Shown here: positions 14,974 to 63,847 of the stretch, one piece after another | Layout of the letters: each line of letters opens with the position of its first letter | How positions within the stretch are numbered: position 1 is the first letter of the stretch | NCBI GenBank assembly: GCA_964613715.1 | Contig: CAZTJK010000004.1 | Coordinates: 3,834 to 67,833 of the forward strand | From: an uncultured Candidatus Saccharibacteria bacterium | GTDB lineage: Bacteria > Patescibacteriota > Minisyncoccia > Phycocordibacterales > GWA1-40-21 | Length of the DNA: 64,000 nucleotides | Direction: 5' to 3' | Made by a program: the position numbers and the translations under genes | Notes under the pieces: model-generated | Seen by the model: the letters and a program-made list of their open reading frames with translations, nothing else | Told to the model about the DNA's origin: nothing | The model's database searches: none

Positions 14974-17900
14974 TTAGTTCGTCAAGTTCTGAGAATCCGT
15001 TGGGATATTCTTGATCAACACGTCATTGTTCCAATCCGGCGAAGTCGTCGAATGTGGGCTGAATGATTCATCAGACCAGACAAACGATGCGTTTGTACCA
15101 GCACCTGATGAGGTGGTTGACTGAATATGACCAGCAGTACCCGCAGCAATCTTTGTCGTGACAGCATCGTTTGTTGCGATGGTGCCGCCGACAACCGCCT
15201 TCAACTTGTAGGTCTTAGACGTGCCTGCTGCGATTTCCTCTGGGTTCGTCGGGGTGAATGTGATCACGCCTGACGTAACACCTGACTGTGAAAGGTCGCC
15301 GGTTGATGATGCGAATGAACCTGGGATTGCCACGTCATTTACATCAGTGAGCGTCCAGCCAGTCTGAAGGGTGCTTGCCGTCGCCAAGGTGTTTGCAGAA
15401 GCCTTGGTGATGGTGAATGCAACCTTTGACCACTGAACTGCGCCAGCTGCATCAGCTGCAACCTGGATCTTGTCGAGGGTCTTCGTACCAGCCTGCAAGA
15501 GAGTATCCGTCAAAGCAACGTTCGTGATTGTCGGAACTGACTTGAAGACATACTGGACGTTACCCGTCGAACCAACGTTACCCACGAGGGTCTGAACGCC
15601 GGTTGATGACTGCTTTCTGTAACCAGTGAGCGTGTACAAGACATTGGAGCTTGACGTTGCGCCACCTGGAGTACCGATTGAAGCAAGATTCAAGTATGCA
15701 TCAACGATGACACCTGAAGTGTTGTTCGCAGGAACAACGATGTTCAAACCAGTCGTGGTTGCCATTGCATTGGTACCATCTGAGGTATCAATTGGCGTAC
15801 CAGAACCGTTGAGCACGGTTGAACCGATCTTGTAAACAACGCTTGCGACGTTACCAGCTGAAGCAAATGGGATGAAGCCCATGAGCTGATCAACCGTGTA
15901 GGTGTCGCCCGTAGCAACAAACTTGAATGAGCCAGCCTTGACTGTGTTGTTTGCAACGACAGTCGTGCTTGCTGCCAAGTTGTATGCTGCCAAGTTCAAC
16001 GAGCCTACTGTGATGCTAAACGTCTGACCAGTCGTGTAGGTTGAGCCTGAAGGGACCGTAACAGTCTGATTTGACTGTGAGGTCTGACCTGCAATCTGCA
16101 ACTTCGTGACGATCACGTCTGCACCGCCGAGTCCTGAACCGAGAGTACCATACACTGAGACGTCAATTGTCTGACCAGCAGGCAATGTGTAGTTCACCGC
16201 GTATGAGTTGTCTCCGGAAACAATCGTCGACTTGTTGCTTGAAGTCTTGTTGCCATACACAACGTAGACATCCGTGATGGATGAGGTAGCAGTCGTAGAC
16301 GCACCTGATCCGAGGAAGTTAACGGTGATGGTGTTCAAGTTCAAGTTTTCAGTCGTACCAGCAGTAAGCGTGTAGTCGCCGAGCTTGACCGCAGTCTGCG
16401 GAGCAATCATTGACTGGTTTGCATATGCCGTGTACTTCGAAAGGGACAATGAGCCCTGAGAAACCGTCAACTGGTTTGCAGTGACAGCACCCGTGCTGAT
16501 ATTGCCGCCTGACTTCGTGAGGTCTGCGTTTGCAGAACCTGCAACGAGAGAAACAGTAACCGTGTTGCCATTTACGAGCTGAGCTCCGCTTGACGTGTAG
16601 ATATCGCTGCGTACTTCAAGAGTAACTGGCGAACCTGGAACGACAGTGAAGTTCAAGCTGTTGTACTGCGTTGCGGTCGTTGAACCGATATCCGCAGTGC
16701 TGCCAACCTGGGAACCATTGACGAACAATGCGCCATTGCGCAATGGGCCAACGTTTGAGCCAGCATATGACACTTTCAAGTTTTCAATCTTGATAGGTTC
16801 ACCTGCTGCCTTGATCTGGAAGCGAGCGAGAGCAACACCTGATGCAGACAACGTAACGTTACCTGAAGGTGAATCGGTCGTCTTCGTGATGGTCAAGGTA
16901 CCAGAGTTGACTGACTGAACGCCCGTCGTGAATGGGAATGTGTAGCCCGAGTTCGTCGTGGCCAACACGTTCACGTTGAGCTGTGAGTCAACAAGGTTGA
17001 GATCTGAAGCCTGTCTCAACTGGAACGAGAAGTTCTTCGTCGAGCCGCCGATGATGTCACCAACGAGTTTGATCGTGTGTGAACCAGTCGTGAGCTTCAA
17101 TGGGTTTCCTGACAAATCAAAGGTCAAGTAATTGTTGACATCATATGCGCTGAGCGCTGAGCCAACCTGATTACCGTCGATGAAGAGGCGGAAATTACCC
17201 AAGTCTCCCGTTGCAACAGAACCAACCTGGCGAAGAGCGATTGCCTTCATCCAGACATCGTTCGTGCTCACGCTTGCCGTGCCGTACCACATGGTGTAAT
17301 CCGTCTGTGGGTCGACTGACGTCGTTGAGACTGACGATGATGAGATGATCACTGATGCGAGCGTCGCTGACGAAACCGTCTGCGAAGCTGCTGAGATCGG
17401 GTACACTGCCGTCACCGGAACATTCGACGTAACGCCCGTGAGGGAGACTACGAAGATCTGACCGTTGTAGGTCGTGCCTGACGTGATGTCAGCGCGAACG
17501 GCGATCGTCATCGATGAGCCTGCAGGAATCGTGAAGAGACCTGAAGGAGCATTGAAGGTGATCTTGCCGGTCGAAACTGATGCTGAGTCAGTCAATCTCG
17601 TCACACCGCTGTAGAGGTAGACGTTTGACAATGCTGCATCGTTTGAAACACCGCCTCTCTGGAGAGTGACGTTCGTCACAACTGCCGGAGCTGCTGAGGT
17701 GTTCGTAAACGTGTATTCAGCGAGGTCAGCGATTGACTGTCCTGCAACGACTGCGCCGGAAACCGGTGAAGTTGCTGCGAGAGATACCTTGAGGTCAGTG
17801 CCTGAAGGGACCACCGTTGAACCGGTACCTGATGACATCGAGCCTGAGCTCAACATCGAGCGGGTCTTCGGACCAACATAACCAGCTGCTGGCGTGATGC

Positions 17901-18246
17901 CGTTTGCAAGCTGATATTTGATGACGGCTGCTTTCGTCAATGAACCGAAGTAACCGGTCGCTGGCGAAATGCCGAGCATGGTCTGCAATGCGGTGACATC
18001 TGCACCCTTGCTACCGACGGTGAGGTCGACAGAGAAGGTGTGGCCTGACGTCGTCGATGAAGATGACGTGAGTCCGAGGGATGCCTTGACTGCAGCTGCT
18101 TTGCTTGCATCAACGAGACCAAGCGCAACGAGCATGTCGATCTCGTATGCCGTCTTCTGCTTGAAAAAAAAAACTGCAACCAATGAGAAGACGACGTCCA
18201 AGCCGGCGACCAGTCCAAACATTGATGAAAAACTATTTCTTTTCAT
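14974..18246 (-). CDS. giant Ser/Thr-rich cell-surface protein (1090 aa) with N-terminal PG_binding_1 domain; 5' end contains adapter-derived sequence
   Basis: After residues 1-36 it has a PG_binding_1 block (GADVTALQTML...GYFGSLTKAAVIKYQLANGITPAAGYVGPKTRSML) and about 900 aa of repeated beta-sandwich-like Ser/Thr/Gly/Val-rich segments. Codons 26-36 (FFFKQKTAYEI) are encoded by an Illumina P7 adapter plus poly-A, so the true N-terminus and start are uncertain. Confidence 0.65.
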   Translation of the reverse strand: MKRNSFSSMFGLVAGLDVVFSLVAVFFFKQKTAYEIDMLVALGLVDASKAAAVKASLGLTSSSSTTSGHTFSVDLTVGSKGADVTALQTMLGISPATGYFGSLTKAAVIKYQLANGITPAAGYVGPKTRSMLSSGSMSSGTGSTVVPSGTDLKVSLAATSPVSGAVVAGQSIADLAEYTFTNTSAAPAVVTNVTLQRGGVSNDAALSNVYLYSGVTRLTDSASVSTGKITFNAPSGLFTIPAGSSMTIAVRADITSGTTYNGQIFVVSLTGVTSNVPVTAVYPISAASQTVSSATLASVIISSSSVSTTSVDPQTDYTMWYGTASVSTNDVWMKAIALRQVGSVATGDLGNFRLFIDGNQVGSALSAYDVNNYLTFDLSGNPLKLTTGSHTIKLVGDIIGGSTKNFSFQLRQASDLNLVDSQLNVNVLATTNSGYTFPFTTGVQSVNSGTLTITKTTDSPSGNVTLSASGVALARFQIKAAGEPIKIENLKVSYAGSNVGPLRNGALFVNGSQVGSTADIGSTTATQYNSLNFTVVPGSPVTLEVRSDIYTSSGAQLVNGNTVTVSLVAGSANADLTKSGGNISTGAVTANQLTVSQGSLSLSKYTAYANQSMIAPQTAVKLGDYTLTAGTTENLNLNTITVNFLGSGASTTATSSITDVYVVYGNKTSSNKSTIVSGDNSYAVNYTLPAGQTIDVSVYGTLGSGLGGADVIVTKLQIAGQTSQSNQTVTVPSGSTYTTGQTFSITVGSLNLAAYNLAASTTVVANNTVKAGSFKFVATGDTYTVDQLMGFIPFASAGNVASVVYKIGSTVLNGSGTPIDTSDGTNAMATTTGLNIVVPANNTSGVIVDAYLNLASIGTPGGATSSSNVLYTLTGYRKQSSTGVQTLVGNVGSTGNVQYVFKSVPTITNVALTDTLLQAGTKTLDKIQVAADAAGAVQWSKVAFTITKASANTLATASTLQTGWTLTDVNDVAIPGSFASSTGDLSQSGVTSGVITFTPTNPEEIAAGTSKTYKLKAVVGGTIATNDAVTTKIAAGTAGHIQSTTSSGAGTNASFVWSDESFSPHSTTSPDWNNDVLIKNIPTDSQNLTN
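18140..18173. other. Illumina P7 adapter (ATCTCGTATGCCGTCTTCTGCTTG) followed by A10: sequencing/assembly artifact
   Basis: Exact 24-nt match to the reverse complement of the P7 flow-cell primer CAAGCAGAAGACGGCATACGAGAT on the plus strand, followed by ten A's. This is the signature of adapter read-through. Confidence 0.9.
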
Positions 18247-28721: not shown

Positions 28722-30650
28722 TTATCTGCCGACCTTGCCGATGCCCGGGACGTATTGCGGGTCGTTCACCACATCGGTCGTGACTGCTGGGCGGTTCTCG
28801 GACAGCGTCTCGCCCGAATAGGAATCGGTGCCGGTGATCGTCGCGGCGTTAACGAGCGGCACATCGAAACCGAGTTGTGTGATCGACGGCGTAACAGACA
28901 CCTGGAATGAAACTTCTTTGGGCGGATACGTGGTGCCGGTGCCCGACTGCATGGCGCCAATAGTCCAGAGTACCTGCCGGGTAGCATCATTGTACGAGAC
29001 ATTTTCAGTTGTCGGACTCGTGAAGCCAGCCCATTTTACATTTGGCGGCAACGTCGCTGCGACGCTCACATTATTCGTGTTATTAAATGAATCGCTTGCA
29101 GTCCAGGTGACGGTGTATGTCGTTTCTTGATCGACTTTCGGCGGAAACGGCCCTGAATTCTCGAACGGGCCGATGGTGCGGAAACTGCGCGACAAGAGGC
29201 CAAGCCCCGAGGAGAGCTTCAGCGTTTTCTTGCCGCTATAAAGAAGCTCCGAGCTGTTGCCGCCGCTCGTGCGGCTGCCGGTGATCGTCGTCGTCATGGT
29301 TATCGCAGCATTGGCGAACTGCACATTGGTCGCTACCGACGGCAAAAGCGTCGCAAGGGTAAAATTCGCCGTCCCCTGATCGGAAGGAGCGAGAGTTTCA
29401 AGGTCGCCGAGGGTCGTCTTATCGAACGTGATGGTATTGTCCTTCGAGCTGTAGAAGCCGTTATCCACGCCGACCTGGGTCTTGTCGAGAATCTGCCCTG
29501 AGAGCTTTGTCACGACGCTTACATTGTAGATTTTTTCCGGCAAATTGTTCTGCCAGGTGAGGTTCGCGGTGATCTTGTCCCCGGCCGAAATCGGCACCGA
29601 GTCATCGGCGCTCTGATTGACGAGCATCGTAAGGCTCACCGATGCTTTTTGAATCGTGATGTCATCCATAGCAAGGGCAAGCGGCGTATCGATGGTGTTC
29701 TTGTCGGTCGATTTCGGCGTACCAACAGTGAATTTCAGCACCCGCTCCTCGCCATCCTGCCCATTGATCATACCCGTGATGATAATGGTGCGCTCCTGGC
29801 CTGGCGCGAGATCGCCGATCGTAAAAACGCTCTGATCGAGATTCGCCGGCTTGGTATTCGCGGATACGAAATCGAAACCAAACGGATAGTCAGCTTTCAG
29901 GATGAGATTGGTCAGGGCCGAGAGCGTATTCGATTTTATTTTTATCGTCATCTGCGTTTGCTGTCCGGCATTGACTTGGTTGTCGCCCGCTATCGTCAGC
30001 GTAACCGGAGAGGAGCTCAAGAGCACCGTATAATCCTTTTCCTTGCTGAAGACGGCGTTTGATCCGGGAATGCGGTATTCGACGGTGATCTTCACGGTTT
30101 CTTGCGTATTCTCCTGTCCGAAGAGTACCGCTTTGACCAGGCGCTCCTGGCTTTTGCCGACCGGCATGTCGCCGATGAGTAGGCTTTCGCGCGGCAAATC
30201 CTTTGATGAGGCATCGGCGGTTTTCGTGCCGCTCGGATACTCGATGCGAAGATCGACGGTATTAAGCACCGTCTGATTATTATTCGTCACCGTGATATCA
30301 AGCGGTAGCACTTCCCCGCCTGCGACCGACACCGGGCCGTTGACGGCAATGCCGATATTGTTTGCAGACACGGTATTCGACCCCGCTAAAAACGTATAGG
30401 CTGCAAAAGCGACGGCAAGGGCGAAAAAGACGAACGCGCCAAAGAGTATCTGGGGATAGGTCAGGCGGAAGCGGGATTCGGCTTTTACATCGTCCTGCCA
30501 AGCGGCTGGCGCTTCCGTACGCATATCGGCAGGAGAAATACCGTGGCGCTTCTTGGCGAAAATGCCGTCAGTATTCCTCGAGTAGAGGACGTCTTTGACG
30601 CTGTCGATCTTGCTTTTTTTCTCTTCGCCCTCGAACATATTCGAAGCCAA
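28722..30650 (-). CDS. single-pass membrane protein with large multi-domain ectodomain (lineage-specific, function unknown)
   Basis: ~75-aa cytoplasmic N-terminus, a TM helix (ILFGAFVFFALAVAFAAYTFLAG), then ~560 aa of repeated beta-rich segments. Confidence 0.45.
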   Translation of the reverse strand: MASNMFEGEEKKSKIDSVKDVLYSRNTDGIFAKKRHGISPADMRTEAPAAWQDDVKAESRFRLTYPQILFGAFVFFALAVAFAAYTFLAGSNTVSANNIGIAVNGPVSVAGGEVLPLDITVTNNNQTVLNTVDLRIEYPSGTKTADASSKDLPRESLLIGDMPVGKSQERLVKAVLFGQENTQETVKITVEYRIPGSNAVFSKEKDYTVLLSSSPVTLTIAGDNQVNAGQQTQMTIKIKSNTLSALTNLILKADYPFGFDFVSANTKPANLDQSVFTIGDLAPGQERTIIITGMINGQDGEERVLKFTVGTPKSTDKNTIDTPLALAMDDITIQKASVSLTMLVNQSADDSVPISAGDKITANLTWQNNLPEKIYNVSVVTKLSGQILDKTQVGVDNGFYSSKDNTITFDKTTLGDLETLAPSDQGTANFTLATLLPSVATNVQFANAAITMTTTITGSRTSGGNSSELLYSGKKTLKLSSGLGLLSRSFRTIGPFENSGPFPPKVDQETTYTVTWTASDSFNNTNNVSVAATLPPNVKWAGFTSPTTENVSYNDATRQVLWTIGAMQSGTGTTYPPKEVSFQVSVTPSITQLGFDVPLVNAATITGTDSYSGETLSENRPAVTTDVVNDPQYVPGIGKVGR

Positions 30651-53325: not shown

Positions 53326-53360
53326 AAACGGGGCGGCGGGCCTTCGGCCCGCCGCCCCGT
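53326..53360 (-). terminator. strong GC hairpin terminator after the pilus-associated large-protein gene
   Basis: AACGGGGCGGCGGGCC-ttcg-GCCCGCCGCCCCGTT: a 16-bp stem with a TTCG tetraloop. Confidence 0.6.
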
Positions 53361-53368
53361 TGAGAGCC

Positions 53369-55189
53369 CTAATTACTGAGTTCTTTCCAGGACGTGATAT
53401 TGAAGCTGCCGGATGGGCCGGACGAGAAATTCGGATTCGCCAAGCCGCTCTGATAGGTGATATTCGTCGCGCCACTCATGATGATCATATTTGCCGTCGC
53501 TTCATTGACATTCGAGCTGCCGGAAAAATTGATCGTGCCGTTTTGCGCATTAAGAATCACCGCGCCGGCTGCGCCGGAAATATCCATCGCATAGGCGCCG
53601 CTGCAGGTGCCGCCACCGGCGCAGCTTGAGGTCGTCACAAGCATGATATAGCTGCCTGATGTGCCCGAGCCGGTCAGATTGCCGCTGCCACCGACAATCA
53701 CTTTTCCATCAGTGACAATGATGCCGCTATTGGCACCATACGAGGATGAAAGCTTTATTTTCCCAGCGCCGTCAACGGTCACATTGCCTGTCACGTAGAG
53801 CGTGCCGGTAAGCGTGAGCGTCACCGAACCGCCGATGTGAAGATTACCGCTTATTTTTTTCGGCCCGAGCGTGAGACTTGATGCATCGCTGTAATCATAA
53901 TTGCCATTGATGACGCCACCGGCAGTCGCCTCATCTTTCCACGAGGTGATATTGCCGCTTGAAACCGGATATGACGATGGCGATGGGTCATCATAGCTCG
54001 TGCATGACTTGTTATTGAGCAGCTCGTTCTGGCAGCGCAATTCGCCGGTCGCGCTTGTGTATTGGATCGTATGCGCCCATGCCATGCCGCTGCCACCCGT
54101 GCCGACATGCAGCGGGTTATATTGGCTATCGCCCGAAATTTTTGAGAAAAAGTCGCCAAGATAGAGGCGGAAGTAGGCATCGTAGCCAGCGTTCGACCAT
54201 GAGCTGCCGAGCGATCCGGTTTTTGCAGTGCCGAGCGTATAGCTCGTATCAAGATTTGCACCGATGACATAATTATTCGAAGCGGAGCCAGTCGAGCCAT
54301 CGATGACGATCCAGTACGTATTGCCGACCGTAAGCGACGGGTTCGGAGAAAGCGCTACGTCGACCCAATCAAGGCTCGTCGTCACGAGAGAGGAATTGAG
54401 CGCGCCGCTCGCGACGACATCACCTGCGACGGTCGACGGGGAACCGCCGCTATCTTTGACGATTTTGACGGTCAGACTCGCCGGGCTGCCAGCCTTTTTC
54501 ACATAGAGCGATACTTGAGTGATAGCAGATGTCGTCGAGACCTGGAAACTTTGCGCCACGTCCTGGGTCGCCGCAGCATTGCCGAAGGTGATCGAATTCG
54601 GTGAGGAGGTCGGCGTGTCATTCGATTGGTCTTCTGTCATCGCCCCATTCGATACGATCGCTGACCCGGTGATATAGGCGCTCGAGCTACCGACGATGTC
54701 TCCGCTCGAAAACACATTACCGGTCACGCCGGAGCTTCCTGACATTGAAAAGCCGCCCTGCCCTACCTGCACCCCGTAAGTGAAGGAAACGCCGGCGCCC
54801 TCCTTCACTTTTGTCTCAATTTTCTTTTGATAGCCGGCATCATCGGAAAGCGTCGTGACCGTCATGCCGTCGACGCCGTTGATCGATCCGGAAAATGTCG
54901 TTGTCGCGCTGTAGCCGTTTAGCGTGATGGATTCGGTCGAGCCGACGTACTGGGTATAGGTCGCATCTTTCAGGCGATAGAGTACGTCTTCCGCACCGGC
55001 TTCCGAGAGGAAATAGCTTTGCTTAGCGCCCCAGATATCGCGCGACAGGAGTATTTGCTTCACGATCGGCGTCGTGAGGCCGAAGACAATGACGAAAGAA
55101 ACAAGCATGAAGATGACCGCGGTCACAAGCATTGCATATCCTTTTTTCTGTTGTGTCGGCATGATCGTCATAATATTAGTAGGATCCAC
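53369..55189 (-). CDS. large pilus-associated surface protein (606 aa) with N-terminal pilin-like TM helix
   Basis: N-terminal KKGYAMLVTAVIFMLVSFVIVFG followed by Gly/Ser/Thr-rich beta repeats. It is the last gene of the pilB-pilC-prepilin operon. Confidence 0.5.
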   Translation of the reverse strand: MDPTNIMTIMPTQQKKGYAMLVTAVIFMLVSFVIVFGLTTPIVKQILLSRDIWGAKQSYFLSEAGAEDVLYRLKDATYTQYVGSTESITLNGYSATTTFSGSINGVDGMTVTTLSDDAGYQKKIETKVKEGAGVSFTYGVQVGQGGFSMSGSSGVTGNVFSSGDIVGSSSAYITGSAIVSNGAMTEDQSNDTPTSSPNSITFGNAAATQDVAQSFQVSTTSAITQVSLYVKKAGSPASLTVKIVKDSGGSPSTVAGDVVASGALNSSLVTTSLDWVDVALSPNPSLTVGNTYWIVIDGSTGSASNNYVIGANLDTSYTLGTAKTGSLGSSWSNAGYDAYFRLYLGDFFSKISGDSQYNPLHVGTGGSGMAWAHTIQYTSATGELRCQNELLNNKSCTSYDDPSPSSYPVSSGNITSWKDEATAGGVINGNYDYSDASSLTLGPKKISGNLHIGGSVTLTLTGTLYVTGNVTVDGAGKIKLSSSYGANSGIIVTDGKVIVGGSGNLTGSGTSGSYIMLVTTSSCAGGGTCSGAYAMDISGAAGAVILNAQNGTINFSGSSNVNEATANMIIMSGATNITYQSGLANPNFSSGPSGSFNITSWKELSN

Positions 55190-55727
55190 GCAGTATCGCA
55201 GTGCTATAAAACCATTCCGTCGATGTCTGGCCGTTTGCCGTCGCCGAAAGATTCAGCTGAATGCGCACGGCCTGTGAATTCCCCGTCGAGATTTTCGTGA
55301 AGATGAGCTTATTGACTTTCGTGCCGTAAAGCGTCACTGGGCCAATAAGGGATGGTGTCGTCGAGCCGCCACTATAATTGAGCGTCTGTGAGCTTGATGT
55401 CGCAAATTTCACTACATACGGATTGCCGCTTGCATCGAGCTGATTAAGCTGTAATACTCCCGCTGCCGAAGGATACAGGGTGCTGTTTGCCGTATCGACC
55501 GATTGCGATGCGCGAATCTGCCGCTCCATCGCCTCGATCGCTGCATATGCGGAATTGCGCAGATTGGAATCCGCGAATGAACTGCGATTGGACTTGAATA
55601 CGACGACGAGTGACTGGATGAGTGCCGTGCCGATGATCGTGATGATGAGGACATAGATCAGCATTTCTATCATCGTAAAACCCTGCTGTGTGCCCCCTCT
55701 TCGTACTGTATGGAAAAATGATTTCAT
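55176..55727 (-). CDS. type IV prepilin-like protein (pseudopilin)
   Basis: Class III signal QQG|FTMIEMLIYVLIITIIG with Glu at +5. Confidence 0.7.
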   Translation of the reverse strand: MKSFFHTVRRGGTQQGFTMIEMLIYVLIITIIGTALIQSLVVVFKSNRSSFADSNLRNSAYAAIEAMERQIRASQSVDTANSTLYPSAAGVLQLNQLDASGNPYVVKFATSSSQTLNYSGGSTTPSLIGPVTLYGTKVNKLIFTKISTGNSQAVRIQLNLSATANGQTSTEWFYSTAILRGSY

Positions 55728-55728
55728 G

Positions 55729-56247
55729 TCAGTTACCGATAATATTGGTCAGATACGTCGCGATGGTTTTGACGGTCGTTGTCGCCTTGTATGGCCAGGA
55801 AACGGACACGGTCACTTTTCTGGTATTGGCATCGACGGTGCCGCCGCTTGATACGATCCTGCCATTGCTATCGCGCATGACCGTTGCGAGATTTATCTTG
55901 CGCGTCATGCTGTCGGTCGTTGTCGCAGTCGTCGTCGCCTTCCAGGCATAATTAGTTGATGAAGAATAATCGAACACGAGGTAATAGGTCGTGCTCGTGG
56001 AAAGCGCAGTGACATTGGTCCATGCTGCATCGCGGATAGTACGCATCGCCTCCACGCCTTCTTCGCCGAAATATGCCGCCTGGGCCGACTGCAAGCTATC
56101 CCCTGCGCCAGAAAGGTACAGATTGCTCGCATAAATGAGCGCGCCTAAAATGACAGAGAATACGAATACGCCGACAAGCACCTCGACAAGACCCATTCCT
56201 TTTTTGAGCGATATGCGCTGCATAGAAAGCGATTTAGTTGCGTTCAA
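55729..56247 (-). CDS. type IV prepilin-like protein
   Basis: KKG|MGLVEVLVGVFVFSVILG prepilin-type N-terminus. Confidence 0.65.
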   Translation of the reverse strand: MNATKSLSMQRISLKKGMGLVEVLVGVFVFSVILGALIYASNLYLSGAGDSLQSAQAAYFGEEGVEAMRTIRDAAWTNVTALSTSTTYYLVFDYSSSTNYAWKATTTATTTDSMTRKINLATVMRDSNGRIVSSGGTVDANTRKVTVSVSWPYKATTTVKTIATYLTNIIGN

Positions 56248-56686
56248 CCACGCCGGTTGAGAATACCCGTATTGTACTACTTTGCGACGGAGCGCTCAAA
56301 AGATAGAGCGTGATCGTGCCGCTTGCTGTCGTCTCGCCGGAGACATTCTGAAAAATGACATCGGTGCCGATGCCGGTCGACGTGGAAATGCCGACAAGCG
56401 TCGACAGGACGAAATCCTTGTTGCCTGTGCCGTAGCTGTCTTGGAACGACGTCACTTTCGTTTTTCCGATTCGAAGGCCGTAGTCGGCGGCATTCTTCGA
56501 AGAGATCGCAAGCGATCGCGCCTCATTCAAAAGCGACATAACGGAAAGCGTGGCCTTATCGAGCGTCTGCGCCGTGCCGAGGCTTGAAAATGAAAGTGTC
56601 ATGACTGCGGCGATGAGCGCAAGGATCACGACGACAGCCATCGTCTCAAGGAGCGTGAATCCCCGTTTGGAATTCGGCAATCGCAT
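56234..56686 (-). CDS. type IV prepilin-like protein
   Basis: KRG|FTLLETMAVVVILALIAAV is the canonical N-methylation/cleavage motif. Confidence 0.72.
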   Translation of the reverse strand: MRLPNSKRGFTLLETMAVVVILALIAAVMTLSFSSLGTAQTLDKATLSVMSLLNEARSLAISSKNAADYGLRIGKTKVTSFQDSYGTGNKDFVLSTLVGISTSTGIGTDVIFQNVSGETTASGTITLYLLSAPSQSSTIRVFSTGVVERN

Positions 56687-56689
56687 GGG

Positions 56690-57907
56690 CTAATTCAGTG
56701 TATCCATGACCGAATAAATCGGTTTGATCATGGCAAGCGCGAAAAAGCCAACGGCGACGCCGATGATCACCATGAGCACCGGCTCGATGATCGTCGACAT
56801 GTCCTTCGTCTTTTGATCGACCGAATTCTCGTAGAATTTCGCCACTTCCATGAGCATGGAGGGCATGCGACCCGTTTCCTCGCCGACCGCCATCATTTCG
56901 CCCACAAATACTGGGCAAAGATCGCTTTTGGCGAGGAAGACGCTCGAGATTGTCTCGCCTTTTTCCACCTTCAGGCTCGCTTCGGAAAGGATCGCGCGGA
57001 AATAGCTGTTCTGGATAACGTCGCCAGTGATGGAAACTGCCTTCGCAAACGGCACACCGGATGAAAGGAGTGAGGAAACCGTGCGCGTGATGCGCGCCGA
57101 ATTCGCTTCTTTGACAAGATCGCCGACAACAGGCGCATGGATCGATACGAAATCAAAGAGACGCCGCCCGCTTTTCGACAGTGAGAAGAAATAGCCGGCG
57201 ATGACAAGCGCAATAAGCAACAACAGTGACAGGATGATATTGTCCTTCAGGAAATTGCTCGAACTGATGAGCACCCGGGTCATGAATGGCAGCTCGACAT
57301 GCAGATCATTGAAGGTCGCGGTGATCGACGGCACGACAAAGACAAGCATGAGGATGCCGACGGTTGCCATGACGAAGAGAATCACGGACGGATAAATCAT
57401 GGCACCACGGATTTTCTTCTTGAGCTTGTACATGCCATCCATCTGCTCGCCGACGATCTGCAGTGATTCGGCAAGCTTGCCCGACTCTTCGCCCGCGCGC
57501 ACCATGGATACGAACAGGTTCGAAAATACGTTCGGGTATGCCGAAGCAGCCTGGGAAAGCGTTTGACCTTTGCGGATCTCAAGGCTGAGCGCAGCGATGA
57601 TCGTCTTGAATTTCTTATTTTTGATCTGCTTTTCGAGCACCGCAAGACTTTTCGCCACCGACAGGCCGGCATCGATCATATAGCCGAGATTTTTCGTGAA
57701 AATGATCTTTTGCAGCTCGGGCACGGCACTCAACAGATCGCTCACGAAGCCGGACCAATGCTTTTTCTCACCGACAAGCGACGCACTTACGAGCGTCGAT
57801 CCTTCAGCTTTCAGTTCCGCATAGAGGGAAAACTTGTCCGTCGATTCGCGGATGCCTTCGTATGTCTCCCCGCTCTTGCGTATCGCTTTGAATGCAAATT
57901 TTTCCAT
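56690..57907 (-). CDS. pilC: type IV pilus assembly platform protein PilC (GspF family)
   Basis: 405 aa; two GspF repeats with three TM helices. Confidence 0.85.
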   Translation of the reverse strand: MEKFAFKAIRKSGETYEGIRESTDKFSLYAELKAEGSTLVSASLVGEKKHWSGFVSDLLSAVPELQKIIFTKNLGYMIDAGLSVAKSLAVLEKQIKNKKFKTIIAALSLEIRKGQTLSQAASAYPNVFSNLFVSMVRAGEESGKLAESLQIVGEQMDGMYKLKKKIRGAMIYPSVILFVMATVGILMLVFVVPSITATFNDLHVELPFMTRVLISSSNFLKDNIILSLLLLIALVIAGYFFSLSKSGRRLFDFVSIHAPVVGDLVKEANSARITRTVSSLLSSGVPFAKAVSITGDVIQNSYFRAILSEASLKVEKGETISSVFLAKSDLCPVFVGEMMAVGEETGRMPSMLMEVAKFYENSVDQKTKDMSTIIEPVLMVIIGVAVGFFALAMIKPIYSVMDTLN

Positions 57908-57911
57908 GGCG

Positions 57912-59669
57912 TTATTCGGTAACTACACGCAGCACTTCTTCGATCGTCGTCAGGCCCTGCACGCATTTGAAAATGCCGTCTTCGAGCATGGTGATCATGC
58001 CCTCTTTCTTTGCCTGCAGCTCGATTTCCTGCGATGTCGCTCCTTTGATGACGAGATCGCGGATAGTCGGCGTCATTTCCATCACTTCATGGATGCCGAT
58101 GCGGCCCGCGAAGCCGTCTTTCGCTTCGGGCGTCTCGACCGGCTTGTAAAAACTGATCTTCGTCCAGTCATCACTCTTGCCAACGATGTTTTCCGCCCGT
58201 AAGGTGGCAAGCACTTTGTCGAGATCGACGATTTTCGCAAGCGAAGCAAGCTCCGTCTTCGACAATATATATGCCTTCTTCGACTTGGTCAGCTTGCGCA
58301 CCAAACGCTGGGCCATGACGATATTGATCGTAGAAACAAGAAGAAATGGCTCGATCTTCATATCGGAGAGGCGCGGAATGGTACCGGCAGCGCTATTGGT
58401 ATGAAGCGTGGAAAGCACGAGGTGTCCAGTCAACGCGGCATTCACGGCAAGAGAGGCCGTCTCATTGTCGCGGATTTCGCCGACCATGATGATGTCCGGG
58501 TCCTGGCGCACCAGAGAGCGCAAACCGTTTGAGAACGTAAAGCCTATATCCGGACGCACCTGCGTCTGGTTCACGCGAGGCATCTGATATTCGATCGGGT
58601 CTTCGATGGTCGCAATATTCACATCGACGGTATTCAAAAGCTCGAGAATCGTATAGAGTGTCGTCGTTTTTCCGGAGCCTGTCGGACCAGTGGTAAGAAT
58701 CATGCCATTGGCGCGCTTCATCGCCTCCTGGATGCGTTCGAGATTGATGCCGTGAAAGCCCATGGACTCGAGCGAGTAGTTGCCGACATTCTCGCGCAAA
58801 AGGCGCATGACGGTCTTTTCACCGAAATAGGTCGGGATGATGGAGACGCGAAAGGAAACGTTCTCGCCATTGAGCTCTATCTTGAAGCGCCCGTCCTGCG
58901 GCAGGCGCTTTTCATCAAGCTTCAAGTTCGCAAGCACTTTGATTCTTGCCGTAATCCCGGTCGCGGCTGATTTCGGCAGGACCATGGCATCATGTAAAAG
59001 ACCGTCGATACGGTAGCGGATCAGGAGATCGTTTTCCATCACTTCGATATGGATGTCGGACGCATTCTGGAGCACCGCATGCTTCAAGAGTGTATCGACG
59101 ACGCGCACGACGGGCAAATCTTCTGCCATTTTTTTCAGCGAATCTTCCGGCGCCTCATCAGCTCCGTTTGGCATATTTGTCTTGAGCGCGAGCAAATCCT
59201 TCTGGATCAGGTCACCGAACTCCGCTTTCAAACTTTTCTGATACTGGAGAATCGCGCTTTTGATCGATTCCGTATCGGTTAGGCGCGGCAGGATTTTCAG
59301 TCCGACTTTTTTCTTAATGAATTCGATTGAGGAGAGATCGTTCGTATCGAGCATCGCCACTTCGAGCGAGTCGATATTCTTGCGGAATGCGATGATATTG
59401 TTCTTGCGCGCGACAGGCTCCGGAATAAGCGAGAGCACGGCGAAATCTATTTTCTGGTTCTTCAAGTCGACGAACGGAATGCCGAAAATATATGCCTGTG
59501 CGCGACGCAGATCATCATCGGTGATCTTCCCGGAGCTCGTAAGCGCCTTCTCGATGCCGCCTTGGATTTTTCCAGCCTTGAGATCGGCCTCAATAGCATC
59601 GTATTCGGTCCGGTTGATGAGGCCGGAATCGACGAGGAATTCCTTCAGCTGTTTGGTATCAAGACGCAT
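57912..59669 (-). CDS. pilB: type IV pilus assembly ATPase PilB (GspE family)
   Basis: Walker A GPTGSGKTTTL, Asp/His boxes and a tetracysteine-like region. The first ATG is at 59669 (MRLDTKQ...); the track ORF starts at a TTG at 59690 inside a TTGGTATACT promoter-like motif. Confidence 0.88.
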   Translation of the reverse strand: MRLDTKQLKEFLVDSGLINRTEYDAIEADLKAGKIQGGIEKALTSSGKITDDDLRRAQAYIFGIPFVDLKNQKIDFAVLSLIPEPVARKNNIIAFRKNIDSLEVAMLDTNDLSSIEFIKKKVGLKILPRLTDTESIKSAILQYQKSLKAEFGDLIQKDLLALKTNMPNGADEAPEDSLKKMAEDLPVVRVVDTLLKHAVLQNASDIHIEVMENDLLIRYRIDGLLHDAMVLPKSAATGITARIKVLANLKLDEKRLPQDGRFKIELNGENVSFRVSIIPTYFGEKTVMRLLRENVGNYSLESMGFHGINLERIQEAMKRANGMILTTGPTGSGKTTTLYTILELLNTVDVNIATIEDPIEYQMPRVNQTQVRPDIGFTFSNGLRSLVRQDPDIIMVGEIRDNETASLAVNAALTGHLVLSTLHTNSAAGTIPRLSDMKIEPFLLVSTINIVMAQRLVRKLTKSKKAYILSKTELASLAKIVDLDKVLATLRAENIVGKSDDWTKISFYKPVETPEAKDGFAGRIGIHEVMEMTPTIRDLVIKGATSQEIELQAKKEGMITMLEDGIFKCVQGLTTIEEVLRVVTE

Positions 59670-59704
59670 AACTTTAGAAAAGTATACCAAGAAAGCGGAG
59701 CAAC

Positions 59705-59733
59705 AAAAAGCCCGCGCGTCGCCCGGGCTTTTT
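59705..59733 (-). terminator. intrinsic terminator between the giant secreted-protein gene and pilB
   Basis: AAAAAGCCCG-loop-CGGGCTTTTT. Confidence 0.5.
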
Positions 59734-59735
59734 GC

Positions 59736-60000
59736 TTAAATCTCGTGTATCTTCCCTTCATCGAGCTTCACCGTCGTCGTCGCCACACAGGTCGACGTAT
59801 ATATGGTGCCATTGGCGATCACCGTCGAGCTCGCGCTCACGCTTTTTATCCCGAGCGTCGTGTAAATCTTATTGAAAGTCAGTGAGCTCGTCGCGGCAGG
59901 CGGCAGATCGGTGCCGGCAATCGTAAGCGATGGATTACTGAATGGCCCTGAAATGCCTGGAAACGAGACAGTCCAGGAGACCTGCTTGTTCAGATAGACG
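59736..60000 (-). repeat. copy 1 of the ~260-bp imperfect direct repeat encoding the shared C-terminal domain
   Basis: Nucleotide similarity to 62835..63100 is visible (for example TAAATCTCGTG....ATCAAGCTTCACCGT and TAAATCTTATTGAAAGT versus TAGATCTTGTTGAATGT). Confidence 0.5.
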
Positions 60001-62813
60001 CTGTTTCCTCCCGGACCACCGATCTGCGTTGCACTGCAGGCAGAGGTCGTGGGGACAGCACAGGAAGCAAGTGGCGCTGATGTCGTAGAGACGCGCTGCG
60101 AAGATGCAGTAAAGAAGGTATTGTTCGGGCCATAATTCACCGCGGTCACGAAATAGGAATATTTCTTGCCGAGAATGACATCTGAATCGGCAAAGCTGTT
60201 GGCGCTCGTCGTGCCGATTTGCACAAACTGGTTGCCGCCGCCATTGCCGGATCTTCTCCATATCTGGTAATAATTCGCTGCATGCGAAGGAGACCAATCC
60301 ACTTCGATCGGCCAGACGCCACCGGCGCCACAGCTATTGGTGACACTCGTATTTGGTGAAGGTGGTTGGGCCCATGCAGTTGCAGTCGAACTTCCGGACC
60401 CGTATTGATTCGTGCAGGTAAGGATAAAGGTGGTGCTGACCAAGAGCGGCAAGCTGTCGACGGAGCTTGTTGCACTGTTTGATGGCTCGACAGTCCCCGG
60501 CCATAAGCCGTTATATGGAGTGGTTTGCGCGGAACAGGCATTCGCCGAGATGGTTCGCCATTGGATATTCGTCGTCGGTGGGGCAGCAACCACGGTCGGC
60601 GAGACAACAAGATTCACCGTAGGTGTCAAAGGGTTCGCCGTGATCTTCACGGCATCGGTCGCGACAAGGCTCATGCCGTTTTTCACGCAGGTCAGGGTGA
60701 ATGTCGTATCTTTTGCGAGATTCCCCGTCGAAGTGCTGCCGGAGGTCGATACTTGACCGAGATTATTACTGTTCCCGCTATTCCCACGACTGCTCAAAGA
60801 ACACGTATCCGCATAGCTCGATGACCAGGCAAGCGTGGTCGAGCTATTCATCGGAATGGATGTCGATGCTGCGGTGATGGAATCGGATGGCCCGACAAGG
60901 ATGGTGGTGCCTGCCTGGCCTGGATTGGTAATACCCGTGCCACTATACGGAATATAGTTACTGCCGCAGTAGACAGTGATGGAAGAATTATTTGTGATCG
61001 GCTTCGTCGATGCCGTACCCCAGACGCCTGCATTCTGATGGATCATGGCGCCGTCCTGCCAGATATCGCACCAATTCGCTCCGCGGGAATCCCAGGAAAT
61101 ATTTGCTGTCATGCCATACGCGGCCGCGCTCGGCGCTGACGTGATATACGCTCCGGGATTGAACTGCGATCCGCTGTTTTGAAAATACACTTTGCTGCAG
61201 TATTTGCCGCCATCATCGCAGACGTTGAGATAATTGCCGGACGCGAGCTGATTGGTATTCGGCCAGCCGATAAATCCCCCACCATAGCCATAATAGGATA
61301 CGGTGCGGCCGGTCCAATACATCGGGCAGCCGCCAGTCCAATTTGCAGAACAAGTGATCGGATCTTCAGTGCTTTCGCAGAAGAAATAGCCACTGTAGCC
61401 GTCCTTGTTCGCATCATTGCTATTCGGAAAACAGGAGATCGCGGATGCGTGCTTTGGCAGAGCAAGCGTTACCAGCGACATGATGATTAGGAACGCTGCC
61501 ATGCCGGGAAGCGTCGGCTTTTTTCGAAATAGTCTCATGCCAATCAAAAGTACGAGCACGCTCGCCAATACGAGAAACAGTGGCCAGAGCATGGCAATAG
61601 GCAGTCCGGTACGCCCGACATGTATGGCGAAATCCTTGGTATCTAAAACTTTTTCAGAACCATCTGCTACATGCGTTGACAGGACGACATGGAGTGATGG
61701 GTTGGCACACGCACGGGAAACCGGCAGGGCGAAAATAGTATCCGGATTTGCCGGAGATGTTTCCTGGGACATCGGTTGAGCGCATTGATTTCCTGCGCTG
61801 TCGCGAAGGGCCACCGAAAGCGTGCCGGCCGACACCGAGGCAATCTCGCCTACAGTATAAATAGCAGATACGATCCTCACTGCCGCAGTATCGCCGGCAT
61901 CATATGCGACCTTATCGAAAGCGACATTCGCGATATCGCCGGCGATTCCCTTGACGAAATACATGAATGAATCGGTATTTGAAATCACTGCGCCGCTTTT
62001 GTCGCGGAGAGATACGAGCGCATAATATTCCTGTGGCACTGTCTCATGCGGCACTGCAAAGATGACCGTTGTGTCCCCGCTTGCAAGCGAGAGCGGCTCG
62101 GCTGCGATGCTTGATGTAGCGATATCGCCATACGGATTATGATAATGGATTTCAAAATACGGATAGGCACTTGTGCTGCCGGAAAGCCGGCTGGTCAAGC
62201 GGCATTCTTCAAAAAGCTCGTCTTGTGCGGAAACGAAGAGCTGGCCCGTCGCATCTTTCTTCCCTTTCACGAAGGCATGGCAGGAATCATGATCGATTTC
62301 GATCGCCTGGCCAGCGCTCGCATGTAAAGCGAGAGGGCTAAAATCGAATAGCGCGATTGTCACGCCGTCCTTGTTGCCGATTTCAATAGAAACAATATAT
62401 GATCCAGCTGTTATTGCATTCGGAATTACATAGGAACGGGCCTGTGCCAGGTGTGATGACGGCTCAAGGGTGAAGGCATCAGCATACGGATGCTCATCGA
62501 CGATCTGAGCGGTAGTTGATGATGTCACCCGCTTGAGACGAACCATGGCTCGTAATTCCGGATATGCATCACGGGTATTATTGACGATATCGAATGAAAG
62601 CTTGAGATCGCGATTGCCGTTATCCGCCCCAGAAATCTGCGTCTGTTCAATCGCAATATCTGCAGGAATCTGGCTCTGCGCTGATGCAGCATGTACGTAC
62701 GTTGTCGGATGAGTCATCCCAACCGGCACTGGAGCGGCTTGCGGCGATGCGAGGTCTTGCGCAAGGGCGAGGAAGGGGAAAAGGAAGAAAAAGAGATAGA
62801 AAATTTTTTTCAT
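59736..62813 (-). CDS. giant secreted/membrane protein (1025 aa) with central TM hairpin and conserved C-terminal domain
   Basis: Signal peptide (MKKIFYLFFFLFPFLALA), ~580 aa of Ig-like sequence, two adjacent hydrophobic helices (LPIAMLWPLFLVLASVLVLLIGM / MAAFLIIMSLVTLAL), a Cys/Trp/Gly-rich region and a C-terminal ~90-aa domain ending TCVATTTVKLDEGKIHEI. Confidence 0.6.
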   Translation of the reverse strand: MKKIFYLFFFLFPFLALAQDLASPQAAPVPVGMTHPTTYVHAASAQSQIPADIAIEQTQISGADNGNRDLKLSFDIVNNTRDAYPELRAMVRLKRVTSSTTAQIVDEHPYADAFTLEPSSHLAQARSYVIPNAITAGSYIVSIEIGNKDGVTIALFDFSPLALHASAGQAIEIDHDSCHAFVKGKKDATGQLFVSAQDELFEECRLTSRLSGSTSAYPYFEIHYHNPYGDIATSSIAAEPLSLASGDTTVIFAVPHETVPQEYYALVSLRDKSGAVISNTDSFMYFVKGIAGDIANVAFDKVAYDAGDTAAVRIVSAIYTVGEIASVSAGTLSVALRDSAGNQCAQPMSQETSPANPDTIFALPVSRACANPSLHVVLSTHVADGSEKVLDTKDFAIHVGRTGLPIAMLWPLFLVLASVLVLLIGMRLFRKKPTLPGMAAFLIIMSLVTLALPKHASAISCFPNSNDANKDGYSGYFFCESTEDPITCSANWTGGCPMYWTGRTVSYYGYGGGFIGWPNTNQLASGNYLNVCDDGGKYCSKVYFQNSGSQFNPGAYITSAPSAAAYGMTANISWDSRGANWCDIWQDGAMIHQNAGVWGTASTKPITNNSSITVYCGSNYIPYSGTGITNPGQAGTTILVGPSDSITAASTSIPMNSSTTLAWSSSYADTCSLSSRGNSGNSNNLGQVSTSGSTSTGNLAKDTTFTLTCVKNGMSLVATDAVKITANPLTPTVNLVVSPTVVAAPPTTNIQWRTISANACSAQTTPYNGLWPGTVEPSNSATSSVDSLPLLVSTTFILTCTNQYGSGSSTATAWAQPPSPNTSVTNSCGAGGVWPIEVDWSPSHAANYYQIWRRSGNGGGNQFVQIGTTSANSFADSDVILGKKYSYFVTAVNYGPNNTFFTASSQRVSTTSAPLASCAVPTTSACSATQIGGPGGNSVYLNKQVSWTVSFPGISGPFSNPSLTIAGTDLPPAATSSLTFNKIYTTLGIKSVSASSTVIANGTIYTSTCVATTTVKLDEGKIHEI

Positions 62814-62834
62814 GTGAATAATGGCGAACAGAAC

Positions 62835-63100
62835 CTAAATCTCGTGGACGGTGCCCGGATCAAGCTTCACCGTGGTGGTTGCGGAGCATGTTGCCGTGTA
62901 TGTCTTCGGGCCAAGCTTGGCAAGCACGGTCGCCGTAATGCCTTTCTGGCCGATCGTCGTATAGATCTTGTTGAATGTTGTCGCATCCTTGCCTTCCGTC
63001 ATGATATTCGCGACATCATTGCCTTCCCAATTCACCTGGAGTGTGTCGAAAGCCTGATCAAGGAATGATGCGCCGCCGCGTATCGCGTCAGGTACGATTG
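62835..63100 (-). repeat. copy 2 of the direct repeat encoding the shared C-terminal domain
   Basis: See copy 1. Confidence 0.5.
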
Positions 63101-63746
63101 TCCATGATACCTGCTTGTTTGCATAAATAGTCGCGGAGCCGAGCTGGGTTGCGGAACAGACTGCATTGAGTACGATCGCATCGAGCGGTATGCCGCCATT
63201 GCCCCCGTTTCCAAAACCGCCAAATCCCCCGTTACCGTTGCCTTGCCCGTTGCCGTTATTACCCTGCCCCGGATGGCCAGGACCACGATTGCCGCCACCA
63301 TTATTGCCGCCGAAAATGCCCTGGCCATTGCCGTTGCCATTATTCTGGCTATTCGATCCGCCGCATGAGCCAACTGCCTGATCGCCGCCGCCAACGCCGG
63401 GAACATAGGTTGCATTGTCATTGCCAAGGCTGACCGGGGCTTTCGTCGCTTGGCTAAGCCGACATCCAGAATCATTGATCAGGCTATTCCCCAAATCAGT
63501 CAAGCCGGTATGAATACCAACAACATCAAGAGTAGCACCGACAGCATCTGCAGCTGCACCAATGATACCGCTGCCAACTGCGATAGAAGTATTCACGACA
63601 ACATTCACAACCGTCGTTGCAACGCTCACCACGGCAGTAACAACGCTTGCTACCGCATCCACGACGAACCCCGCCTGGCTTATTTGCGGTGTAACGATGA
63701 GAACCGCACCGAAGAGAAGCGAAAATGCCTTGAGATAGAGTTTCAT
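62835..63746 (-). CDS. secreted Gly/Asn-rich protein sharing the C-terminal domain of the upstream giant protein
   Basis: Signal peptide MKLYLKAFSLLFGAVLIVTPQISQA from the ATG at 63746, a long low-complexity GNG-repeat region, and a C-terminus (...NKQVSWTIV...FNKIYTTIGQKG...TCSATTTVKLDPGTVHEI) paralogous to 59736..~60000. Confidence 0.55.
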   Translation of the reverse strand: MKLYLKAFSLLFGAVLIVTPQISQAGFVVDAVASVVTAVVSVATTVVNVVVNTSIAVGSGIIGAAADAVGATLDVVGIHTGLTDLGNSLINDSGCRLSQATKAPVSLGNDNATYVPGVGGGDQAVGSCGGSNSQNNGNGNGQGIFGGNNGGGNRGPGHPGQGNNGNGQGNGNGGFGGFGNGGNGGIPLDAIVLNAVCSATQLGSATIYANKQVSWTIVPDAIRGGASFLDQAFDTLQVNWEGNDVANIMTEGKDATTFNKIYTTIGQKGITATVLAKLGPKTYTATCSATTTVKLDPGTVHEI

Positions 63747-63847
63747 GGATAAATGATGCTTATAAATAATAGTGCTTCTATTATAGCAGATATGCATGCG
63801 GTGCAAACCGGTCTGTGTATAAGCGATTGCATGCTATCATACACCGC

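Follow-up and report, generated by a model that had tools for sequence, protein, structure and literature searches.

This locus raises the question of why two adjacent genes beside a type IV pilus cluster encode proteins that are alike in their last ~110 residues, and of what such a shared end might do. The genes lie in a 64-kb stretch of contig CAZTJK010000004.1 (assembly GCA_964613715.1), from an uncultured Candidatus Saccharibacteria bacterium; the whole stretch is referred to below as the window. The shared end, here termed the C-terminal domain (CTD), defines a new family: undescribed, strictly C-terminal, restricted to the Candidate Phyla Radiation (CPR) among the genomes that carry an organism name, and closed by a near-invariant terminal dipeptide.

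Both genes are on the minus strand, where the open reading frame of the small protein is followed 21 nt on by that of the big one (Table 1). In BLASTP, the match between the two proteins covers residues 919-1025 of the big one and 190-303 of the small one, with 48 of 117 positions identical (41%, E=6e-19); beyond these terminal ~110 residues nothing aligns. The initial annotation had proposed this shared domain, and the motifs it quoted (NKQVSWT, FNKIYTT(L/I)G and TC(V/S)ATTTVKLD(E/P)G..HEI followed by the stop) are all found. Its wording of two giant proteins holds for one of them (1025 vs 303 amino acids, aa), and its ~260-bp imperfect direct repeat was overstated: a repeat search and blastn between the two CTD genes recover only 20-nt and 15-nt patches. 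Codon-aligned, the two CTDs are 52% identical over 107 codons, compared with 26+/-3% for random in-frame pairs; the DNA likeness reflects constraint at the protein level, not a recent repeat. A six-frame tblastn search of the window returns these two copies only. The span given in the initial annotation ends at 63806, where an in-frame TTG would lengthen the small product to 323 aa; the ATG at 63746 is preferred because of the promoter-like site at 63807-63780, which sits just upstream of it, and because of the public 303-aa call (P0001).

The family was defined by running a profile of the two CTDs exhaustively against 1.84 billion representatives, which gave 70 matches at E<=1e-3. One of these, P0003 (2789 aa, 22 partial matches), was rejected as a spurious match to a repeat protein, and the remaining 69 representatives of 50%-identity clusters form the family set. 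Word-indexed protein searches were insensitive here, returning 0 proteins with the 2-sequence profile and 2 with a 62-sequence profile; when the genome collection was scanned, the 2-sequence alignment gave nothing and a 10-sequence core alignment retrieved relatives. The wider search that the initial annotation had in mind thus recovers the module far outside the window, and given that the similarity between the two window proteins is also confined to their ends, the shared module is a family and not a private tandem duplication.

The 69 representatives range from 74 to 2015 aa, and in every one of them the domain envelope stops 0-2 residues from the C-terminus. The strictly terminal position, with one copy per protein, which had been anticipated from the window pair, also holds for every complete terminal copy in the loci fetched below. 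The sequence ends in EI in 54 of the 69, with a penultimate Glu in 61 and a final Ile in 60. The consensus reads C..SQ...(I/V)Y(V/L)N(K/R)xxxWT...W(S/G)GT(N/D)I...KIYTT(V/I)GxKxIxA...C(S/T)xTT(T)V(K)LDxGxxxEI-COOH; Cys14, Tyr72, Thr74, Gly76 and Lys78 are invariant in the alignment, the second Cys is near-invariant, and the tail columns are conserved at 77% (L), 58% (D), 79% (G), 90% (E) and 89% (I). The possibility that the CTD also occurs internally or in tandem was considered and rejected: terminal copies score 66-114 bits, whereas internal Cys-bracketed immunoglobulin (Ig)-like repeats of the same proteins score 10-15 bits and are missing the tail. The CTD of the big protein is the sole one of 62 aligned that does not have the 98%-conserved Trp of W(S/G)GT(N/D), reading LTIAGTDL instead, and is a slightly atypical member.

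That no domain had been defined for this module was also correct. Neither window protein has a Pfam or NCBIfam match, any Pfam or NCBIfam family matched at E<=1 among 62 members is matched by a single one of them, and weakly, and a sequence profile search of the PDB with the CTD gave no match. Members carry public names such as 'NHL repeat-containing protein' or 'SMP-30/gluconolactonase/LRE family protein', which refer to their middle domains, or are called hypothetical. The named source genomes are Paceibacterota, Minisyncoccia and the Parcubacteria group, with some labelled Saccharibacteria. Literature searches on CPR pili and C-terminal sorting domains, and on Parcubacteria pilB, NHL repeats and pilus-tip adhesins, turned up no account of the module.

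The passengers were described from the window as otherwise unrelated secreted proteins, and across the family the N-terminal context does vary. A hydrophobic N-terminus is present in 45 of 57 full-length members. The N-terminal module of the big protein (N-module, Table 1) is common to ~19 other representatives (E<=1e-19), and the N-terminal part of the small protein to a single one, P0005, at locus L039; the remainder differ. Outside the N-module subfamily, members consist of a signal peptide or transmembrane (TM) segment, a variable region and the CTD. One short member, P0043 (131 aa, locus L002), probably represents the end of an NHL-repeat gene that is in fragments. On the same contig, from the Joint Genome Institute (JGI), pilB and also polA are in several pieces across reading frames (L002 10472..12256), and this fragmentation is better explained by an error-prone assembly or by decay of the locus than by recoding.

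AlphaFold2, given a 62-sequence alignment, models the CTD as an eight-strand beta-sandwich (predicted local distance difference test, pLDDT, 93.7; predicted template modelling score, pTM, 0.81), and leaves the last ~9 residues (DEGKIHEI) outside it as coil, with confidence falling along them. The best PDB matches of the model in Foldseek are PKD domains of ColG, ColH, KIAA0319, SorCS2 and polycystin-1 (4jrw, 4jgu, 2e7m, 4tn9, 1b4r), with E~2e-3 and TM-scores of 0.5-0.6, a modest similarity; the best viral matches are Hoc-type Ig domains. The CTD resembles PKD domains (PF00801/PF18911) in fold and in the landmarks W-x-G-T-(N/D) and h-x-Y-x-x-x-G-x-K. A plain PKD domain was nevertheless rejected on sequence, with the fold retained: none of the 62 members reaches a PKD hidden Markov model (HMM), and hhalign against the window's own Pfam-PKD domain gives a probability of 0.1. 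PKD domains are, moreover, usually internal and repeated, without a conserved terminal tail or a bracketing disulfide. The structure prediction is of a disulfide-bracketed PKD-like sandwich from which an L-D-x-G-x-x-x-E-I-COOH tail protrudes, and on this model the CTD is best described as a PKD-like Ig domain that has diverged, is bracketed by a Cys pair and ends in a conserved free tail.

The co-occurrence with type IV pilus loci that the initial annotation envisaged was assessed on 41 related loci, gathered from exact look-ups, GTDB genomes and metagenomes, of which 32 are informative and non-duplicate. One or more CTD genes lie less than 500 bp upstream of pilB, on the same strand, in 19 of these 32, and in three more pilB is found 3.7-8.4 kb downstream of the CTD gene. 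Among the 19 linked loci, eight have two tandem CTD genes, as in the window, and eleven a single one. In the window, where the initial annotation had placed pilB, pilC and prepilins, the genes next on the same strand encode PilB, PilC and three prepilins, followed by a GspK/PilX-like 606-aa protein (p606). The order pilB-pilC-mp150-mp172-mp183-p606-(AI-2E permease)-metG is conserved on contigs that are long enough, and CTD genes on the same strand as a cluster of GspH/I/J/K-like pilins are seen in the window and at least 10 other loci. On the other side, the upstream neighbour of the window's CTD genes recurs in the close relative L039 only. One CTD gene away from pilB (L008 7313..10309, 993 aa) is located between genes resembling fusA (EF-G) and tuf (EF-Tu), so named from the look of their N-terminal sequences, in the str/S10 ribosomal-protein region, an odd site for a surface-protein gene.

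The pilus cluster holds a complete core minor-pilin set, GspH/I/J/K-like, including a GspK/PilX-like subunit without Glu5: the residue is missing in all 10 aligned p606 orthologues (G↓Y(A/V)ML(V/L)T). PilB and PilC score nearly as high on the GspE and GspF models as on their own. The p606 protein has a sub-threshold match to choice-of-anchor R (27.3 bits, cut-off 30). Its mature length varies by lineage from ~120 to ~590 residues (L005, L007, L010, L013, L015, L018, L024, L026), the long forms having the sub-threshold choice-of-anchor R match. Within the 64-kb window no pilD, pilM/N/O, pilT, further prepilin or obvious major pilin is present, and pilD, pilM/N/O, pilT and the major pilin must be encoded elsewhere or be absent. 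As for the start of pilB, it is listed from TTG 59690, but ATG 59669 (MRLDTKQL...) is preceded by an extended -10-like element, TGGTATACT, and is probably the true start; with that start and that -10-like site, the leader would be very short.

The form of the CTD tail goes along with the composition of the cluster. Tails of the type '...NVILG(G/N)DxIKEI' accompany clusters without mp150 in three loci (L013, L015, L038), with a short p606 in the two where it is visible. Tails of the type '...KLDxGxxxEI' accompany clusters with mp150 in eight loci (the window, L005, L007, L010, L018, L024, L026, L031), where p606 is long wherever it is complete. This co-variation of tail subtype and minor-pilin set is suggestive, and may stem from co-evolution or simply from lineage.

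The two window proteins are built differently around their common end. In the big protein, Foldseek matches of the N-module include RbmA, the macroglobulin (MG) domains of alpha2-macroglobulin and complement, and adhesin extender repeats. The ectodomain is partly conserved in homologues, which often have NHL beta-propeller repeats in its place. Between the two is a TM hairpin, and members of the N-module subfamily in which the hairpin is detectable (P0006, P0007, P0009, P0010, P0019 and others) have the same arrangement of TM1, basic loop and TM2 with an AxA-like end (HASA↓I, PAAA↓I, ITHA↓C, VAYA↓N, TASA↓N and others). With its basic loop, hydrophobic core and AxA-type end, TM2 looks like an internal Sec signal peptide, and signal peptidase may free the CTD-bearing half from a membrane-anchored N-terminal stalk. 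By hydropathy, the final ~570 residues of the big protein and the final ~220 of the small one are free of hydrophobic segments. In the small protein, the Val/Ala-rich stretch of ~55 residues starts with GFVVDAV directly after the predicted signal-peptide cut and is kept in P0005/L039; it could be a membrane anchor or hairpin, or an amphipathic assembly element.

Table 1. Features of the two CTD genes, their products and the adjoining pilus cluster, in order along the minus strand (window coordinates).
Feature	Coordinates	Strand	Basis
Best promoter-like site, TTTGCA-16-TATAAT, extended TG	63780..63807	-	Consensus scan, 10/12 matches; pattern match only
Small CTD protein gene, 303 aa from ATG	62835..63746	-	Open reading frame and translation; same 303-aa product public (P0001)
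Small protein, putative Sec-type signal peptide, residues 1-25 (..ISQA↓GF)	63672..63746	-	Hydropathy; orthologue P0005 keeps ..THA↓GFVVDAV
Small protein, Val/Ala-rich hydrophobic segment, residues 26-80	63507..63671	-	Hydropathy; composition V 18%, A 14%, L 10%, G 10%; conserved in P0005
Small protein, Gly/Asn-rich low-complexity spacer, residues ~110-185	63192..63419	-	Composition G 41%, N 20%
Small protein, CTD, residues 190-303, ending ..TTTVKLDPGTVHEI	62838..63179	-	BLASTP, tblastn; family HMM 102.8 bits, envelope reaches C-terminus
Big CTD protein gene, 1025 aa	59736..62813	-	Open reading frame; exact protein on Logan/NCBI contig
Big protein, putative signal peptide, residues 1-18 (..FLALA↓QD)	62760..62813	-	Hydropathy; helix 2-17 in model
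Big protein, N-module, residues 53-396, three beta-sandwich (FN3/macroglobulin-like) domains	61626..62657	-	Conservation; AlphaFold2 pLDDT 85-93
Big protein, TM hairpin, residues 402-455: TM1, RKK loop, TM2 ending ..HASA↓ISC	61449..61610	-	Hydropathy; model helices 406-430, 435-450
Big protein, variable ectodomain, residues 456-918: Cys-rich region, two Cys-bracketed Ig-like repeats ending TFxLTC, FN3-like domain	60060..61448	-	Sequence
Big protein, CTD, residues 919-1025, predicted PKD-like beta-sandwich, Cys926...Cys1009	59739..60059	-	BLASTP; family HMM 104.5 bits, terminal; AlphaFold2 pLDDT 93.7; top PDB matches PKD
Big protein, conserved C-terminal tail L-D-E-G-K-I-H-E-I-COOH, residues 1017-1025	59739..59765	-	Column conservation; modelled as coil outside sandwich
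Terminator-like hairpin (A5 / GC stem / U5), big-gene stop to pilB	59702..59736	-	dG -24.1 kcal/mol, z -3.16
pilB, assembly ATPase	57912..59690	-	TIGR02538, 4.9e-157
pilC/GspF, platform protein	56690..57907	-	TIGR02120, 1.8e-85
mp150, GspH-like prepilin (KRG↓FTLLE)	56234..56686	-	TIGR01708, TIGR02532; orthologue alignment
mp172, PilV-like prepilin (KKG↓MGLVE)	55729..56247	-	TIGR02523; orthologue alignment
mp183, prepilin (QQG↓FTMIE)	55176..55727	-	Prepilin models; orthologue alignment
p606, pilin-like N-terminus without Glu5 (KKG↓YAMLV), GspK/PilX-like, large extra domain	53369..55189	-	10-orthologue alignment
Strong intrinsic terminator closing pilus cluster, 16-bp stem, 14 GC pairs, T-run	53327..53361	-	Window's strongest; after p606

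The remaining genes of the window are housekeeping genes and genes for unrelated surface proteins. Surface-type proteins without a CTD are encoded on the minus strand at 11658..13124 (Lamin-tail and canonical PKD, 488 aa), 14974..18246 (PG_binding_1, 1090 aa) and 28722..30650 (DUF11, 642 aa). Given that the first of these carries a canonical PKD domain, bona fide PKD domains distinct from the CTD exist in this genome. No Rfam family was found in the window.

The closest functional precedent for the CTD proteins is PilY1/PilC. These large secreted proteins are highly variable in their N-terminal adhesion domains but share a conserved C-terminal one; a genome has several paralogues, and their genes accompany those of the four core minor pilins. 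PilY1 is predicted to dock by beta-strand complementation with PilX (PMC13190605). The CTD family has the same division into a conserved C-terminal domain and variable N-terminal regions, and its genes are near a four-core-minor-pilin cluster that includes a Glu5-less PilX/GspK-like subunit. The differences are considerable. The CTD is a predicted ~105-aa PKD-like sandwich, whereas the PilY1 domain is a ~550-aa seven-bladed propeller (PF05567), which has no match in the window CTD proteins. Where PilY1 genes come after pilX, the CTD genes precede pilB and are set off from it by a terminator-like hairpin, with pilB-pilC between them and the pilins, and many members have a TM hairpin.

With this precedent, we tentatively favour the reading, possible though far from assured, that the CTD is a common docking or retention module coupling interchangeable adhesins to this type IV pilus apparatus. 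It is supported by the strictly terminal, single-copy module on variable passengers, by the adjacency of CTD genes to pilB in 19 of 32 loci, by a minor-pilin set that is the context in which PilY1 is encoded, and by the co-variation of tail subtype with that set. Dispersed extra copies also fit a cargo family serving one system: at least two unlinked copies come from genomes that have a pilB-linked one as well (L008 with L015, L012 with L013). The Sec-exported surface proteins of this CPR (Paceibacteria/Minisyncoccota-type) bacterium end in the CTD, behind variable adhesin-like ectodomains in the family, whether NHL propellers, Ig/FN3 arrays or just a spacer, and the CTD would couple these to the pilB-pilC cluster with its GspH/I/J/K-like minor pilins. 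The CTD would then be a functional counterpart of the conserved C-terminal domain of PilY1/PilC on a different fold. Its exposed ...EI tail may attach as an added beta-strand to a pilin-like protein, p606 or mp183, and in the large subfamily signal peptidase may cut at TM2, so that the CTD half would leave its membrane-anchored stalk.

Several observations weigh against docking to the pilus. Ten of the 32 loci are unlinked to pilB and lie amid housekeeping genes, none of which recurs as a neighbour. Phylogeny confounds the co-variation of tail and pilin set. In the small protein no adhesin domain can be recognised, the Ig/PKD sandwich is a generic fold used for many purposes unrelated to pili, and the big protein, unless its TM hairpin is cleaved, would remain anchored in the membrane and could not travel on a pilus tip.

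Transcription adds a further objection. The window hairpin between the big-gene stop and pilB has a loop of more than 8 nt, for which reason the consensus scan missed it. In 13 of 18 other pilB-linked loci (L002, L004, L005, L009, L010, L013, L019, L024, L025, L028, L029, L033, L038) a comparable hairpin stands after the last CTD gene; these hairpins (dG -13 to -33 kcal/mol) are conserved in position and divergent in sequence. Since a strong terminator-like hairpin separates the genes, co-transcription of the CTD genes with pilB is doubtful and their expression is perhaps uncoupled. The CTD genes thus share a conserved neighbourhood with the pilus cluster but probably form a separate or attenuated transcription unit. 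Such an arrangement is common for abundantly expressed pilin genes located ahead of pilB.

These same observations can be read without the pilus. The CTD could bind a wall, S-layer or membrane-surface polymer non-covalently, as SLH and other wall-binding modules do, and hold secreted adhesins on the cell, with the proximity to pilB reflecting a clustering of surface genes. The strictly C-terminal position on Sec-exported proteins with variable passengers would suit such an envelope anchor, as would the terminator before pilB and the third or so of informative loci that are unlinked; a cleaved TM2, if it is cleaved, would call for a retention device. We regard this as rather unlikely, given that it fails to predict adjacency to one specific pilB paralogue in 19 of 32 loci or the non-conserved upstream flank, that searches of Pfam and NCBIfam give no wall-binding match for the CTD, and that, to our knowledge, an invariant free ...EI carboxy-terminus is not a feature of wall-binding domains. 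The comparison of the module with LPXTG and PEP-CTERM signals, drawn in the initial annotation, is not supported. LPXTG (sortase) and PEP-CTERM (exosortase) signals likewise occupy the C-terminus of diverse secreted proteins, but they consist of a motif, a TM helix and a basic tail, whereas the last 110 residues of the CTD proteins form a predicted soluble beta-sandwich without a TM segment, and the NCBIfam families listed for the 62 members and for the two window proteins include no sorting signal. The domain might also be an ordinary Ig-like domain inherited by paralogous CPR surface proteins, its terminal position and pilB linkage being accidental. Its generic PKD/Ig fold, the distantly similar internal Cys-bracketed repeats in the same proteins and the indirect nature of all functional support agree with that; this is nevertheless very improbable, as descent leaves unexplained a placement that is never internal and never repeated (69 of 69) amid shuffled N-termini, the ~90% conservation of the last two residues, and a CTD-pilB junction that is kept while the upstream neighbour is found in one close relative.

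Other possibilities give the CTD an active part in assembly or export. CTDs could bind each other, or the tail could serve as a donor or edge strand, so that tandem CTD proteins, in the window a membrane-tethered small one and a large one, form hetero-oligomers or a fibre. The tandem genes in eight of the 19 linked loci, the window included, the protruding tail of the model and a small protein that is essentially anchor, spacer and CTD all point this way. Filaments of Ig-fold proteins built by donor-strand exchange are, moreover, known in CPR: the Pam pili (PamA/PamB) of Saccharimonadia/Microgenomatia consist of CPR-specific Sec-exported Ig-fold proteins with paired cysteines, in which a conserved strand mediates subunit-subunit binding (10.64898/2026.03.03.709456). 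Pam pilins, however, belong to other CPR classes and differ in architecture, being two-domain proteins of 38-55 kDa whose incomplete Ig fold is completed by a linker strand and which have their own chaperone/usher-like operon, whereas the CTD is modelled as a complete sandwich ending proteins of 0.3-2 kaa beside a type IV pilus cluster. With all eight strands present and none predicted to be missing (pLDDT 93.7), a single CTD gene in 11 of the 19 linked loci, and no chaperone- or usher-like gene evident in the pilus cluster, self-assembly seems improbable.

About as improbable is that a type II secretion system (T2SS)-like machine of PilB, PilC and pseudopilins recognises the ...EI-COOH of the CTD and pushes Sec-exported cargo through the wall or S-layer. 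The nearly equal GspE/GspF scores and the GspH/I/J/K-like pilin set fit such a machine, and the logic is that of type IX secretion system (T9SS) cargo in Bacteroidota, where a strictly C-terminal Ig-like beta-sandwich of ~70-100 residues (type A TIGR04183, type B TIGR04131) tags diverse Sec-exported proteins encoded both close to the machinery and elsewhere in the genome; the weak structural neighbours of the CTD include, at rank 34, a protein with a T9SS 'gliding motility-associated C-terminal domain'. Membership in the T9SS families, to which the initial annotation had likened the module, is not supported: the hosts are CPR, not Bacteroidota, neither TIGR04183 nor TIGR04131 nor their Pfam equivalents are among the families listed for the 62 members (E<=1), and no T9SS genes were seen in the window or in flanks of ~10 kb. 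We know of no conserved ...EI-COOH terminus in T9SS cargo, nor of T2SS substrates with a modular terminal signal. Also speaking against export, the named CPR are presumed to be without an outer membrane, and the cluster shows neither a cleavage site nor a sortase-like enzyme. A bolder version, to which we assign a very low probability, is that the CTD, with its near-invariant ...E-I-COOH tail, serves monoderm CPR as a modular tag recognised by a type IV pilus/T2SS-like machine, the cargo being carried at the tip or pistoned through the wall or S-layer, and N-module/TM-hairpin proteins replacing PilMNOPQ, of which no component was seen in the pilus cluster.

These findings bear on how such bacteria attach to other cells. 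The CPR/Patescibacteria in cultivation are attached to host cells, and in the few cases studied this attachment requires type IV pili (PMC9894109, PMC12206443). If, as we infer, the CTD proteins are pilus-associated modular adhesins, a C-terminal tag recognisable in sequence would explain how highly variable adhesin domains can be exchanged while the platform stays constant, and would allow candidate host-contact proteins to be listed for any such genome. For the Paceibacteria/Parcubacteria branch we know of no genetics at all. Should the CTD with its ...EI-COOH tail prove to be a recognition tag, the type IV filament superfamily would have its first targeting domain that is linear and transplantable, and the tag would give a handle on the host-contact 'cargo-ome' of uncultured CPR from sequence alone. 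Whatever its function, the family merits a Pfam/NCBIfam model, and it provides a sequence-searchable tag, together with testable hypotheses, for host attachment in uncultured CPR.

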